Shown: positions 1 to 29,275, numbered from the stretch's first letter. The stretch is 45,975 bases of DNA from Bacteroidales bacterium (GCA_035477635.1 DATIKK010000031.1:1-45975); one strand, 5' to 3'. A program made the numbers and translations. Notes: generated by a model from the letters alone, not told the origin.

Positions 1-1074
1 GCCGCAACAGGCCAGCCTGTTGAATTGGAAGGCGGTTATGGCGCATTTCATGGTGGCAACCTGCCCAACGACAACTCCGGAGTGCTCAGGTTTGTAAGAA
101 TTGAGTATGCAGGCATTCCCATTAACCCCAATGAAGAAATCAATAGCCTCACTCTGGGTAGTGTAGGTTCGGGCACAGTGATCGAAAATATCATGGTTTC
201 ATTTGGTCTTGACGACGCATACGAGTGGTTTGGAGGAACGGTGAACGCCCGTTGGCTGATAGCATACCGCAATGTGGACGACGACTTTGATGTGGATATG
301 GGATGGACAGGTAATGTGCAATATGCAATATCCATTAGGGGTGCAACGCTTGCCGACCAGTCCGGTGCCAACACTTTCGAGATTGACAACAACGGAACCG
401 GAAGTGCAGCAGAGCCATTTACCTCAGGGGTATTCTCCAATGTTACGGTTATTGGTCCGAAGAAAAACCGTGACCTTCCTATAAGCCTTCAATATTCGAA
501 TGCAGCCCATCTGCGGCGCAACTCGCGCACAAGTATCTACAACTCGGTATTCACGGCGTTTCCCAACGGTCTGTTTATTGACGATGACAGGCCCGGTTCT
601 GGCCAGGCAGCATTAGATGGACATTTGCAAATCAGAAACTTGTTTCTTGCAGGTGTATCCCATTGGGGTGGAAACGGGTATGGCTCAGCCGGCACTATCT
701 TTAGCGGTGCTCCTGCCAACGGGTTGCAGCACCCCACACTGCCACGCGGCACAGCGATACGGCACCATGCAAATTTTCCCCCCGGCGGTGCAGAAGGTGC
801 AGCAGCATTCAACACCTGGTTTAACACAGCGGCTTTCAACAACCGATTGTTTGATAACTGGGAACTGCTCGGCCTGAATCAAAATATATTCGACCTGGGA
901 GTACCCACCCTGCTGCCCACCGCACAAAGTCCGCTACTCAATGCCGCTCGCTGGGACAACACCCCAAAAGCCACCACTTTCTTCGAAAGGGCTACTTTTG
1001 TTGGCGCTTTCGGAACCACCGACTGGACAAGTGGTTGGGCAGAATGGAATCCGCATTTGGTTACCTATTTTTAA
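1..1074 (+). CDS. conserved hypothetical exported protein, 5'-truncated by the window edge
   Basis: Frame 1 is open from nt 1 (AATGQPVELEGGYG...), so the TTG at 25 in the ORF track is internal. The frame runs to TAA at 1072-1074. Composition is G/N/D/T-rich and strand-like (LRFVRIEYAG, DDDFDVDMGW). A hairpin terminator follows. Family not recognised. Confidence 0.6.
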   Translation, partial: AATGQPVELEGGYGAFHGGNLPNDNSGVLRFVRIEYAGIPINPNEEINSLTLGSVGSGTVIENIMVSFGLDDAYEWFGGTVNARWLIAYRNVDDDFDVDMGWTGNVQYAISIRGATLADQSGANTFEIDNNGTGSAAEPFTSGVFSNVTVIGPKKNRDLPISLQYSNAAHLRRNSRTSIYNSVFTAFPNGLFIDDDRPGSGQAALDGHLQIRNLFLAGVSHWGGNGYGSAGTIFSGAPANGLQHPTLPRGTAIRHHANFPPGGAEGAAAFNTWFNTAAFNNRLFDNWELLGLNQNIFDLGVPTLLPTAQSPLLNAARWDNTPKATTFFERATFVGAFGTTDWTSGWAEWNPHLVTYF

Positions 1075-1410: not shown

Positions 1411-2457
1411 TTAATCCGGACAGGGTAACATACGGGGCGTCCTGTTTGGCGGACCTTGATTAAAATGGTAAATCAGCGAAATTTCGTGCGACCCGCCCGT
1501 AGTATTTATAAGTCGGGAGATAGTCATATCGTAGCTATAGCCCAGTCGCAGAAACCTGGTGCGAATTCCAGCAATGGCAACAATGGCATCGTTGTTGAAT
1601 AAACCGTGCTCATAATTGTTAAATATAGGTATTCCCCGATAGAGGAGTCCAAGCGAAATGGGGTGTTTGCTCCAATATAATCCTACATCAAGTTGATTGA
1701 ACTTCCCCTGATTTCGGTATAATAATGCAAGTGAAATACTCTCATCAGCATCGCCTCTTAGAAACCCTCCATATTCGTAGCGATATCCGGCAAAAACCGA
1801 AAACTTCATGGGTATCCGGTTTACCTGTCCATCGAGCATTGAGCGGTTGGGACGCATAAGGTTATCAACAGTGAGTCCGGCCCAGATAGTATTTGAGTGA
1901 GCCACAACCGATGCTGCTGCATCAAAGTACCTAACGCGTTCGATAGGTACTACAGGGTTTACCGTTGTTGGCCTGTGCTGGCCACCCAGGTCAAGTTGAT
2001 CGCCAAACGTAAGCCGGAAAAAATCCAAAGTTCTTTCTGCAACACTGAAAGCCACTCCGGGACGAAGTGTCAGGTTATGGTTAACCTGGAAATTGTACGA
2101 GTACATAAGATTCATCGAGGTGTTGGCAAGACGTCCTGTTCCGGCCTGGTCGCGCAGTACCAGCAATCCAACACCACTGTTAAAATTGTGAAAATAGTGA
2201 TCGAGCGAAAAGGCGTAAGTTACGAAGGCGCCGGGGATTGATGGCCACTGATTTCGGTAGTTAAGGCCTAACCTGCTGCCGTCGGTGGCCCCGGCAAAGG
2301 AAGGAGCAAGATAAAGAGGGGCAGCATAAAACTGCGAAAATTGTGGTTCCTGAGCAATTAACCTGAAATTGGCCTGAATAATACCAATCATCAGGACAAT
2401 ACAGACTACCCCTTTATACGCTGTTGAAAGCCCAGGCCGACTTAGTATTTTTTTCAT
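1411..2457 (-). CDS. PorP/SprF-family type IX secretion system membrane protein
   Basis: 348 aa with a signal/TM N-terminus, then the family-typical QEPQFSQFYAAPLYLAPSFAG motif and Y/G/N-rich beta-barrel-like composition. It lies immediately downstream of a type-B CTD cargo gene, the classic SprB/SprF-like arrangement. Confidence 0.9.
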   Translation of the reverse strand: MKKILSRPGLSTAYKGVVCIVLMIGIIQANFRLIAQEPQFSQFYAAPLYLAPSFAGATDGSRLGLNYRNQWPSIPGAFVTYAFSLDHYFHNFNSGVGLLVLRDQAGTGRLANTSMNLMYSYNFQVNHNLTLRPGVAFSVAERTLDFFRLTFGDQLDLGGQHRPTTVNPVVPIERVRYFDAAASVVAHSNTIWAGLTVDNLMRPNRSMLDGQVNRIPMKFSVFAGYRYEYGGFLRGDADESISLALLYRNQGKFNQLDVGLYWSKHPISLGLLYRGIPIFNNYEHGLFNNDAIVAIAGIRTRFLRLGYSYDMTISRLINTTGGSHEISLIYHFNQGPPNRTPRMLPCPD

Positions 2458-13631: not shown

Positions 13632-14144
13632 TTAATTTATAATTCCAAGCCGGGTCTTAACAGGTTGAATCAGGTTATCTCCCGGAGGGAAGAAAATAAC
13701 TGCCCCAGTTGCAGTATCGAATACGTAAGTATAACCTAATTCTTTTGCTACATCTTCAATAGCCTGGCGGGCCGCCTGAATAATAGGAGCCAGCAGGCGC
13801 TGCTCCATCTGAGCAAGGTCTTGCTGTGCCAATTCCTGAAACTCCTGAACCCGTTCCTGAAGATTGTTTAACTCGCGTTGCCTTGATTGCCTGATAAGCT
13901 CGGAATATGTAGCTTCGTTTGCGACATATTCCTGGAATTTGGTCTGGAGTTCGGTTTGCATTTCAGCAAAAGTCTCCTCGAGAGTCCTGGCATGGTTTTG
14001 CAATTGAACCTGAGCAGAGTCGCGACCGGGCATTACTGCAAGCAACTCGTTAGTGTTAATATGTCCGAACTTTAGTTGCTGAGCATGCGCGCCTGAAGCA
14101 AAAAGCATTAAAACCAGTAGGGCAAGAAAAAACAATTTTTTCAT
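13632..14144 (-). CDS. OmpH/Skp-family periplasmic chaperone
   Basis: 170 aa with a signal peptide (MKKLFFLALLVLMLFASGAHAQ), then a Q/E/L-rich coiled-coil body typical of OmpH/Skp. Confidence 0.85.
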   Translation of the reverse strand: MKKLFFLALLVLMLFASGAHAQQLKFGHINTNELLAVMPGRDSAQVQLQNHARTLEETFAEMQTELQTKFQEYVANEATYSELIRQSRQRELNNLQERVQEFQELAQQDLAQMEQRLLAPIIQAARQAIEDVAKELGYTYVFDTATGAVIFFPPGDNLIQPVKTRLGIIN

Positions 14145-14229
14145 TCGTATATTTTTTGATTAGATTAGGATGGAATTCGCATGATAAATTTACATCACTT
14201 GTTTATTTAACGAATCATGCTCGTTTGGT
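14145..14229 (-). promoter_or_regulatory. copy of the recurrent envelope-gene leader element (5' leader of ompH paralog)
   Basis: The minus strand reads ACCAAACGAGCATGATTCG...GTGATG...TTATCATGCGAATTCCATCC...CGA-ATG-AAAAAA. The core matches the 25682 copy at 22/31 positions, and both helix pairs are retained. Confidence 0.5.
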
Positions 14230-14404: not shown

Positions 14405-14480
<76 letters not shown>

Positions 14481-14536: not shown

Positions 14537-14621
14537 GCCCGGATGGTGGAATAGGTAGACACCCAGGACTTAAAATCCTGTGGCCATTGCGGCCGTGCCG
14601 GTTCGAGTCCGGCTCCGGGTA
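14537..14621 (+). tRNA. tRNA-Leu (anticodon TAA), long variable arm
   Basis: GCCCGGATGGTGGAATAGGTAGACAC..., anticodon loop CTTAAAA, long extra arm, GGTTCGAGTCC T-arm and a G1-U72 acceptor end as in E. coli leuZ; 85 nt, CCA not encoded. Confidence 0.93.
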
Positions 14622-25681: not shown

Positions 25682-25771
25682 ATGAAACGGGCATGATTCG
25701 CAAAACACAAACAAGGATGACAATTCATCATGCGAGTTCCATCCAACCTTAATCTTAAAAATCTTTTACGG
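25682..25771 (+). promoter_or_regulatory. reference copy of the recurrent envelope-gene leader element (bamA-ompH intercistronic)
   Basis: Core ATGAAACGGGCATGATTCGCAAAACACAAAC (25682-25712). Helix P1 is GCATGAT 25691-25697 with ATCATGC 25727-25733. Helix P2 is GGATG 25715-25719 with CATCC 25740-25744. An A/T-rich tract then runs to the ATG at 25772. Confidence 0.55.
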
Positions 25772-26281
25772 ATGAAAAAGTTATTGTTTACAGCCATAAT
25801 GCTATGGGCTGGATTGAGTTTCGGACAACGTTTTGCTTATATTGACACCGAATACATACTTGACAACATCCCCGAGTTCAAGGCGGCCGAGCAGGAGTTG
25901 GAACAACTCAGCATGACATGGCAACGCGAAATTGAGGAGATCTTCGGAGAGGTTGATCGTTTATACCGCGAGTACCAGGCTGAGGCTCCTTTGCTACCTG
26001 AGGATATGCGTCGTCGCCGTGAAGAAACTATTATTGAGCGTGAAAGAGAGGCCAAAAATTTGCAGATGCAGCGTTTTGGCCGCGAGGGAGACCTCTTCCA
26101 AAAGCGGCAGGAATTGATAAAGCCAATACAGGACAGAGTTTTCAGGGCTGTCGAAGAACTGGCCACTAATGAAAATTATGCTGTGATTTTTGATAAGGCA
26201 GGCAGCCTGACTATGATATTCACTGATGTCAGGTTTGACCTGAGCGATCAGATACTACGAAACCTGGGATACCGAAGATAA
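25772..26281 (+). CDS. OmpH/Skp-family periplasmic chaperone
   Basis: ATG at 25772 gives MKKLLFTAIMLWAGLSFGQ, a signal peptide. The body is E/R/Q-rich coiled coil, and the gene sits directly downstream of bamA. The upstream in-frame ATG at 25730 lies inside the conserved non-coding element. Confidence 0.85.
   Translation: MKKLLFTAIMLWAGLSFGQRFAYIDTEYILDNIPEFKAAEQELEQLSMTWQREIEEIFGEVDRLYREYQAEAPLLPEDMRRRREETIIEREREAKNLQMQRFGREGDLFQKRQELIKPIQDRVFRAVEELATNENYAVIFDKAGSLTMIFTDVRFDLSDQILRNLGYRR

Positions 26282-29203: not shown

Positions 29204-29275
<72 letters not shown>

Follow-up and report, generated by a model that had tools for sequence, protein, structure and literature searches.

Described systems of four kinds are the closest to the element considered here. 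ROSE-type and fourU RNA thermometers are multi-hairpin 5′ leaders of ∼100 nucleotides (nt), in which the 3′-most hairpin pairs with the initiation region, and several copies per genome precede different genes. The ERIC/IRU, Correia/NEMIS, and bcr1 repeats are co-transcribed with neighboring genes and fold as RNA. The IS200/IS605-derived elements and the REP/RAYT repeats insert beside a specific short motif. In the MS2 coat/replicase arrangement and the erm leaders, a hairpin masking the following start codon is opened when an upstream frame is translated. The locus compared with them lies in a 45,975-nt stretch of DNA from a Bacteroidales bacterium (GCA_035477635.1, DATIKK010000031.1:1–45975), termed the window, in which an earlier note, made without database searches, had flagged the spacer between bamA and ompH as a recurrent leader element. 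This spacer is a member of a family of structured repeats, each ∼95 nt long, that occurs in Bacteroidia. The repeat unit has ATGAAAC at its 5′ end, and its 3′ end is the ATGAA start of the next gene. On balance, the unit probably gates translation at the start codon and is borne by a mobile or formerly mobile cassette found at ATGAA starts.

The feature central to this reading is a helix, P3, that contains the start codon. An anti-start segment, CAUNNN(NN), located one nucleotide after the preceding helix, P1, pairs with NNNAUG, that is, with the start codon and the 3–5 bases before it, across a 20–30-nt A/U-rich loop. In 268 copies in which the ATG was set by a hidden Markov model (HMM) and not by pairing, positions −1, −2, and −3 form Watson–Crick or G·U pairs in 93%, 87%, and 86%, respectively. 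More than 20 combinations of P3 arms are observed, including CATCCG/CGGATG, CATCTTAT/ATAAGATG, CATACG/CGTATG, CATACTAT/ATAGTATG, CATCAG/CTGATG, CATTCG/CGAATG, CATGCG/CGCATG, and CATGTG/CACATG. On an alignment termed A3, these positions show 38, 29, and 14 double changes and a covariation score of 0.21, compared with 0.057 for shuffles (0/500 as high) and at most 0.054 with the partner slid; half of A3 was kept on having at least five P3 pairs, which inflates its paired percentage, and the 268-copy count is the unselected figure. For the start codon, the median predicted probability of being paired is 0.95, versus 0.57 in control genes (p = 3e-15). A helix that holds the AUG and is kept by compensatory changes, as found here, is what marks a start-codon-sequestering leader.

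P1, formed by AACGAGCAUG and CAUGCGAGUU, comprises eight Watson–Crick pairs around a 5′-GA/3′-AG tandem mismatch. RNAalifold recovers both P1 and P3 unaided, with a 2×2 internal loop at the G·A positions of P1. P1 always encloses an interior of variable length, a one- or two-hairpin domain whose length and sequence differ by subfamily. The first structure of the interior in most subfamilies is a hairpin, P1a (for example GACAA..TTGTC, GGCAA..TTGCC, GTAAA..TTTAC, or GAATAC..GTATTC), which covaries (72 and 71 double changes); the subtype seen in the window has no P1a and has a GATGA/TCATC hairpin in its place. Common to all subfamilies are a 5′ block, (AT)GAAACGAGCATG, a middle block, CATGCGAGTTCCAT, and a 3′ block, NNNATGAA. 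Insertions are confined to the P1a loop, the loop of the second hairpin, the P1/P3 junction, or the P3 loop. Inserts in units are often small G+C-rich hairpins, such as CCCGA-NNNN-TCGGG and GAACCC-TTCG-GGGTTC, and such inserts are also present in L004, L009, L055, L078, L090, L224, L240, L255, L279, and L303 (L numbers denote fetched loci); they may be a second mini-insertion family or structural expansion segments.

The window contains three full copies and one truncated copy. The reference core, ATGAAACGGGCATGATTCGCAAAACACAAAC at 25682–25712 (+), repeats at 1396–1366 (−) with 1 mismatch and at 2590–2560 (−) with 3 mismatches, and a site at 14229–14199 (−) is identical to it at 22/31 positions by manual count and carries AACGAGCATGATTC exactly (4 matches seen versus 0.04 expected). 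No core matches were obtained in 100 dinucleotide-shuffled windows (0/100). These are the four sites that the earlier note had listed, and its statement that similarity continues to the start codon in three of them also holds, at 25772–25774 (ompH), 14144–14142 (second ompH), and 2457–2455 (porP). With a covariance model (CM) based on the wider family, the three full copies reach 86, 55, and 38 bits. The copies and the parts of the reference copy are as follows; ORF denotes open reading frame.

25682..25774 (+): reference copy, from the 5′ ATG through the ompH start codon, in the bamA–ompH spacer; CM 86.1 bits, E 1e-14; nhmmer E 3e-17
25682..25684 (+): 5′ ATG of the reference unit, opening the mini-ORF ATG AAA CGG GCA TGA, with an A-rich, initiation-like context before it
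25686..25695 (+): P1 5′ arm, AAC-GG-GCATG (family consensus AAC-GA-GCATG), from pair conservation and RNAalifold
25696..25728 (+): variable interior domain, with junction CACAAAC and hairpin GATGA (25716–25720)/TCATC (25725–25729)
25729..25738 (+): P1 3′ arm, CATGC-GA-GTT, from pair conservation and RNAalifold
25740..25745 (+): anti-start CATCCA, of which CAT pairs with the start codon, from P3 covariation; the minimum free energy fold of the reference copy shows the helix
25746..25768 (+): P3 loop, A/U-rich as in all subfamilies
25769..25774 (+): start-codon arm CGGATG, with the ompH ATG at 25772–25774, from the ORF frame, the OmpH Pfam match, and the P3 pairs
14142..14229 (−): degenerate copy preceding the second ompH; CM 54.9 bits
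2455..2590 (−): copy preceding porP, with two internal insertions; nhmmer E 4e-10, CM 38 bits
1300..1396 (−): decayed orphan copy, 15 nt past the porP stop codon, between convergent genes; 3′ boundary approximate

The reference copy has a G where the family has a nearly invariant A in the P1 5′ arm, and this rare GGG variant is common to the window orphan, of which the first 31 nt alone are intact. In the P3 helix of the reference copy, A25745 lies opposite C25769 as a mismatch. The second-ompH copy has ACC in place of the 5′ ATG, one C·A mismatch in P1, and a P3 composed of CAT/ATG plus one pair. In the porP copy, one insertion falls within the interior hairpin loop and the other, containing the hairpin GAACCC-UUCG-GGGUUC at 2503–2488, falls between P1 and the anti-start; P3 is formed by CATCCG (2488–2483) with CGGATG (2460–2455).

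The fold differs from the one first drawn for the spacer, an H-type pseudoknot of two interleaved helices. Both complementarities exist in the DNA: GCATGAT/ATCATGC (25691–25697 with 25727–25733) and GGATG/CATCC (25715–25719 with 25740–25744), the latter only 4 bp long in the ompH copy at 14229. The core of the first survives as part of the family-wide P1 helix, all eight pairs of which are invariant in 144–150 of 150 sequences, and because P1 is invariant it shows no covariation of its own. The second helix, termed P2, and with it the pseudoknot, had to be given up. Two of its five pairs are unpaired in 89–95 of 150 sequences, its covariation score is 0.043 versus 0.049 for shuffles (467/500 as high), and its 5′ arm, GGATG (25715–25719), falls inside the variable interior domain, where the internal segment does not track changes in the anti-start (CATACG, CATCAG, CATAAG); P2 is seen in the window subtype only. 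Instead, CATCC pairs with the GGATG of the start codon, with abundant compensatory change. In the window subtype, the start codon could have a competitor for CAUCCG in the internal CGGAUG, a feature that is not family-wide. Another pseudoknot, between an interior loop and the 7–8 nt before the P3 3′ arm (e.g. GUAUAAAA/UUUUAUAC), is kept as a lead only: matches of at least 7 nt are found in 23% of copies, versus 11% when partners are permuted and 4% when segments are shuffled; they belong mainly to the Marinilabiliaceae subtype, and the window copies have none. Two other readings of the conserved nucleotides were rejected: a hammerhead, which CUGAUGA...GAAAC resembles in some copies, has no stem II between the boxes here, and CUGA becomes CGGA, CGAA, or CGUA elsewhere; a CsrA-like GGA site fails because the GGA varies across subfamilies.

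The extent of the family was determined with three pattern scans of one-genome-per-species contigs, directed at the 5′ block, the middle block, and both P1 arms with the rest free; copy totals from the second and third scans are lower bounds. An HMM built from 150 copies gave at least 314 matches in the 2.25 Mb fetched, with ∼310 in pattern-fetched loci (∼1.6 Mb), in genomes of Marinilabiliales and of numerous Bacteroidales. Named hosts include the Marinilabiliaceae Anaerophaga, Thermophagus, and Marinilabilia and the Prolixibacteraceae Draconibacterium, Mariniphaga, Mangrovibacterium, Maribellus, Tangfeifania, and Prolixibacter, together with Paludibacter, Dysgonomonadaceae, Odoribacter, Rikenellaceae, and many Bacteroidales metagenome-assembled genomes (MAGs). 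One Elizabethkingia isolate and one Flavobacteriales MAG are outlying hosts, and the few non-Bacteroidota titles among the matches belong to short MAG contigs or to patterns matched by chance. Anaerophaga thermohalophila DSM 12881 has at least 44 copies within 19 sequence windows, Thermophagus xiamenensis has at least 23, and 160 loci chosen by OmpH homology, not by the repeat, yielded one copy, again preceding ompH (L158). As the earlier note had supposed, the element matches no named RNA family in Rfam 15: at gathering thresholds, the window gave three tRNAs alone and 15 loci with ∼30 copies gave 0 matches, and permissive scans of two copies gave chance-level microRNA and small nucleolar RNA model matches only. 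A full-text literature search, sequence strings included, returned no description of the repeat, and the family is apparently undescribed.

Placement with respect to genes was counted over 285 full copies. In 160/285 copies, an ORF of at least 60 amino acids (aa) begins at the terminal ATG; in 31/285 (11%) the next unit follows head-to-tail, with ATGAAA in common; 87/285 (∼30%) are orphans with a short ORF only downstream; and the terminal ATG is missing in 7/285. A single copy of 263 lies inside a long ORF. The second codon of the downstream gene encodes K in 140 and N in 12 of 154 cases. Among copies with an upstream ORF, 64% are on its strand, and a quarter of those are within 30 nt of that ORF, an arrangement that makes read-through transcription of these copies plausible. 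The proteins encoded downstream are diverse. Pfam matches for ten of them are to pyruvate kinase, 6-phosphogluconate dehydrogenase, aspartokinase, OTCase/ATCase, type II dehydroquinase, 2-hydroxyacid dehydrogenase, an EF-G-like GTPase, V-ATPase B, an ABC ATPase, and superoxide dismutase (SOD). Hydrophobic N termini are more frequent among element-linked proteins (60%) than among all background ORFs (39%, p = 4e-6) and are equally frequent among background ORFs starting with MK or MN (58%, p = 0.84). The second codon and this matched comparison indicate that placement is set by the ATGAA start and not by envelope function. The earlier proposal of a cis-acting RNA that coordinates envelope and type IX secretion system (T9SS) genes therefore stands in its first part, a role in translation being the best-supported reading, and not in its second.

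Oxidative-stress genes recur downstream of the element: Fe/Mn SOD in L230, L254, and L284, glutathione-peroxidase-like N termini in L049 and L202, and a peroxiredoxin-like ORF ∼200 nt downstream in L077. The hosts of these targets include the distant Elizabethkingia and Draconibacterium, and the Pfam check on these proteins covers SOD only.

Retained copies are conserved in place. In four of five orthologous pairs, element identity is 0.90–0.96, compared with 0.69–0.75 at third-codon positions of the downstream gene and 0.70–0.86 in the upstream 100 nt; retained orthologous copies, the A/U-rich loop included, change more slowly than synonymous sites. At the other end of the unit, the 5′ trinucleotide is ATG in 238/286 copies (83%). 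In gene-linked copies, the frequency of A at positions −14 to −11 of this 5′ ATG is 0.59, versus 0.43 further upstream, a peak that resembles those of real starts in the same loci and the Kozak-like pattern reported for Flavobacterium (PMC6847099). The mini-ORF that begins at the 5′ ATG encodes MKRA* in 100/213 copies, its frame runs to or past the true start codon in 38/213, and unit length modulo 3 is uniform (76/69/68). A conserved leader peptide was rejected on the varying length of the mini-ORF and this uniform distribution; with a variable mini-ORF and units whose length is not divisible by three, translation as such could matter and the peptide cannot.

Initiation in Bacteroidetes is reported to depend on low structure at the start and on Kozak-like A residues (PMC3155529, PMC6847099). 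Since Bacteroidia have no Shine–Dalgarno anchor and need an open start, the element should act as a gate. P3, stacked on P1 and including the AUG, would keep the gene off by default, and the A/U-rich P3 loop is a possible ribosome landing site. The preferred trigger, put forward as a hypothesis, is translation from the unit's own 5′ AUG: ribosomes starting there would enter the P1 5′ arm at codons 2–5, unfold P1, and destabilize the stacked P3. Opening of P3 would expose the real start, and expression would stay coupled to the gene's original initiation region. Alternatively, a factor that binds the invariant G·A junction could act as the trigger. The family may have dispersed as a cassette located at ATGAA starts, which it regenerates; such a spread would explain why unrelated downstream genes all begin with MK or MN. 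The gate is read from anatomy, and its action at the RNA level, its trigger, and the mode of spread of the family are inferred; sense-strand RNA is favored by the conserved tandem of mismatched purines, by the cUUCGg insertion, and by conservation in place.

Several observations weigh against the gate. The orphans, at about 30% of copies, have only a short ORF downstream; those with a neighbor within 1 kb are oriented roughly at random (48 on the same strand and 28 opposite, of 76), and the 28 face the end of a convergent gene, where leader function is impossible. In the fifth orthologous pair, which involves a degenerate copy, the element changes faster than its flanks. For the coupling step, 10–17% of copies have no 5′ start codon, and mini-ORF length is not conserved (half of the copies encode 4 aa, the others 5 to >30). 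P1, being invariant, offers no covariation support, A3 is partly selected on P3 pairs, the nearly invariant G·A position is altered in the reference copy, and P3 is weak in the copy at the second ompH. Nor do strand counts separate RNA from DNA: sense-strand G·U pairs in P3 are not above A·C, with 28 copies having A·C at the loop-side pair, and P1a has 30 G·U versus 18 A·C, which leaves room for hairpins at the DNA level or in single-stranded DNA.

A stronger form of the gate reading, a start-codon-homing cassette, is tentatively entertained. Such a cassette would integrate at the ATGAA starts of arbitrary genes, so that the old start heads the mini-ORF and the new start is locked in the conserved RNA fold, with host expression possible only via translation-coupled or factor-dependent opening.

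The main rival of the gate is a selfish, non-autonomous mobile DNA repeat, which is rather unlikely as the full account. Under this explanation, the repeat targets ATGAA, often lands on start codons, and regenerates them, and is therefore harmless; P1a and P3, together with GTTCCAT, a guide-like complement of ATGAAAC, would be the hairpins and guide of transposition or recombination as DNA or single-stranded DNA, and any effect on the mRNA would be incidental. Much of the distribution fits. Units of one genome are numerous and near-identical even in loops, and subtypes are genome-specific. Tandem neighbors, which overlap by ATGAAA, are often dissimilar and hence look like independent additions and not products of slippage. 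Copies are kept out of ORFs, orphans are randomly oriented, targets are set by the MK/MN start and not by function, the window orphan and the reference copy have a rare variant in common, and P3 shows no sense-strand G·U excess. The closest orthologous bamA–ompH spacers (73–83% amino-acid identity) are also without the element and consist of a short spacer ending ATGAAAAA; relatives at this distance, the nearest being at 83% amino-acid identity in genomes and 82% in metagenomes, are too remote for a nucleotide-level empty site. ATGAA(A) at both unit ends may be a duplication or a common recombination core. No filled/empty pair at orthologous sites was found among the fetched loci, and inspection revealed no terminal inverted repeats, the ends CGAGCATG... 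and ...TTTACGG not being inverted repeats, for which reason a transposable element of the miniature inverted-repeat type was rejected. No recurrent transposase was seen near copies in ∼225 fetched windows, nor any recurrent non-housekeeping ORF cluster within 8-kb windows, although an HUH profile search was not run; plasmid searches gave no match, and viral contigs gave only 2. An inert insertion would not be expected to change as slowly as the retained copies do, short of frequent gene conversion; read from the opposite strand, the conserved purine–purine G·A tandem would become a C·T/T·C mismatch; and occluding a restored start codon brings a selfish element no gain.

A non-mobile global regulator of the riboswitch or protein-binding type, in which the three-way junction of P1 and the G·A pairs would bind a ligand, an ion, or a protein and so set the state of P3, is improbable. 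It would account for the invariant unpaired and junction nucleotides beside covarying stems, insertions restricted to loops, a tandem arrangement as in some riboswitches, the in-place conservation of orthologous copies, and the oxidative-stress targets (SOD three times, glutathione-peroxidase-like twice). The targets, however, have no common pathway, orphans face gene ends, near-identity of within-genome copies even in loops speaks for recent amplification and not an ancient regulon, and the interior domain is very different between subfamilies, the window subtype lacking P1a. A riboswitch was therefore rejected despite its conserved core. A DNA-level promoter or operator, such as the sigma-E-type alternative of the earlier note with TGAAAC as −35 and CACAA as −10, is very improbable: TGAAAC does resemble the −35 boxes of extracytoplasmic function sigma factors, and the second ompH copy, divergent from its upstream neighbor, needs a promoter of its own, but the spacing from GAAAC to CACAA, which such a promoter would fix at 16–17 nt, varies from 17 to >22 nt between subfamilies, both motifs are in base-paired or junction segments, conservation runs ∼60 nt further to the start codon with base-pair covariation, one in four copies whose upstream gene runs in the same direction lies within 30 nt of that gene, and no canonical Bacteroidetes promoter was found at a fixed distance upstream of the element, the TAnnTTTG box occurring in 23/181 cases on the sense strand and in the same count on the reverse strand.

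Further observations concern the variation and surroundings of the units. In many of the sediment Bacteroidales MAGs nearest to the window, a clear GGAGGA Shine–Dalgarno-like motif, unusual for Bacteroidia, is present ∼6–12 nt before ompH (L113–L135 and others), and the window has the repeat at that position. In A. thermohalophila, a second common sequence, CCTCATTAACAAT(A/G)AGTTAACTCCGGTACAAAAA, follows several units and replaces the gene start (L010 (−), L018, L077 from ∼5606 on, and L250). Chimeric copies, in which the 5′ half up to CATGCGAG is fused to another conserved sequence (CCTGCCTGCCGG...TTATGAAAAAG / TTATTAGAGGGCAAATC), are found in L206, L216 (two copies), L275, L296, and L304 and suggest modular recombination or a related family. 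In the Flavobacteriales MAG JBBIOU01, every fetched copy precedes the same protein, MKKSKFSPEQIARILKEFEQGKK..., which is intact in L073 and L083 and interrupted after 14–17 codons in L016, L087, and L097. Judged from its sequence, this protein looks like an IS3-family OrfA, and an insertion sequence that carries the unit could shuttle it between genomes.

The genes downstream of the window copies are the following.

25772..26281 (+): ompH gene, the start codon of which is the last part of the reference unit; PF03938, E 1e-32
13632..14144 (−): second ompH gene; PF03938, E 6e-32
1411..2457 (−): porP/sprF gene; PF11751, E 2e-60

Pfam also finds BamA (POTRA and Omp85) and a PKD/CHU_C adhesin in the window, in agreement with the gene identities that had been assigned to all five. 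Three tRNA genes are located at 14405–14477 (+), 14537–14621 (+), and 29204–29275 (−), the first two of which sit divergently, just upstream of the second ompH copy. A 349-aa ORF at 25–1071 (+), which runs toward porP in convergent orientation, matches no Pfam family at E ≤ 1e-5. Mechanical ORF calling opens the ompH ORF at an ATG inside the element (25730–26281), 42 nt early.

The element represents an uncatalogued RNA family that is overlooked by current genome annotation, and its 5′ ATG can mislead start-codon calling, with some copies permitting in-frame N-terminal extensions. How the start codons of individual genes are tuned in the Shine–Dalgarno-less Bacteroidia is poorly understood, and the element, a portable module present tens of times in a genome, provides a testable handle on start-site accessibility. 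If mobile, it would be an unusual repeat that rewires the translation of unrelated genes, among them bamA-linked chaperones, T9SS parts, and central metabolism. Should the homing-cassette reading be true, it would constitute a new class of element joining transposition to translational control, with tens to hundreds of genes affected per genome.

Returning to the described systems, the element is similar to ROSE and fourU leaders in its length, in the 3′-most hairpin over the initiation region, and in the multiple copies that precede different genes. ROSE elements occlude a Shine–Dalgarno sequence and precede heat-shock genes only, whereas here no Shine–Dalgarno sequence is involved, the AUG itself is paired, targets are unrelated, copy number is 10–100 times higher, and orphans and tandems are present. 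A thermometer of the ROSE or fourU kind was rejected, as there is no Rfam thermometer match, no Shine–Dalgarno sequence, and no heat-shock bias among the targets. With ERIC/IRU, Correia/NEMIS, and bcr1, the element has in common that it is a short, non-coding, multi-copy intergenic repeat, patchy between relatives. Those repeats are long imperfect palindromes or have terminal inverted repeats, generic short targets, and a variable distance to genes; the element lacks inverted termini, its polarity is fixed, and in 56% of copies the start codon makes up its final bases. The IS200/IS605-derived elements (PATEs) and the REP/RAYT systems resemble it in the absence of inverted termini and of an obvious target duplication, in hairpins with non-canonical pairs, and in a specific short motif, and the complementarity of the internal GTTCCAT to the end or target ATGAAAC is guide-like, as in IS200/IS605. 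In contrast, no Y1/HUH transposase was seen near copies within 8-kb windows (the HUH profile search was not run), the two end hairpins are unlike each other, and placement at start codons is not a known property of either family, REPs being mostly at gene 3′ ends. Like the MS2 and erm arrangements, the element has a short upstream frame that overlaps one arm of a structure masking a downstream start; those are single, gene-specific arrangements, whereas the element is a portable, repeated cassette in which coupling is proposed from the anatomy. The element has the defining features of neither the ROSE-type leaders nor the transcribed repeats: it is ROSE-like in how it would work and transcribed-repeat-like in its distribution.

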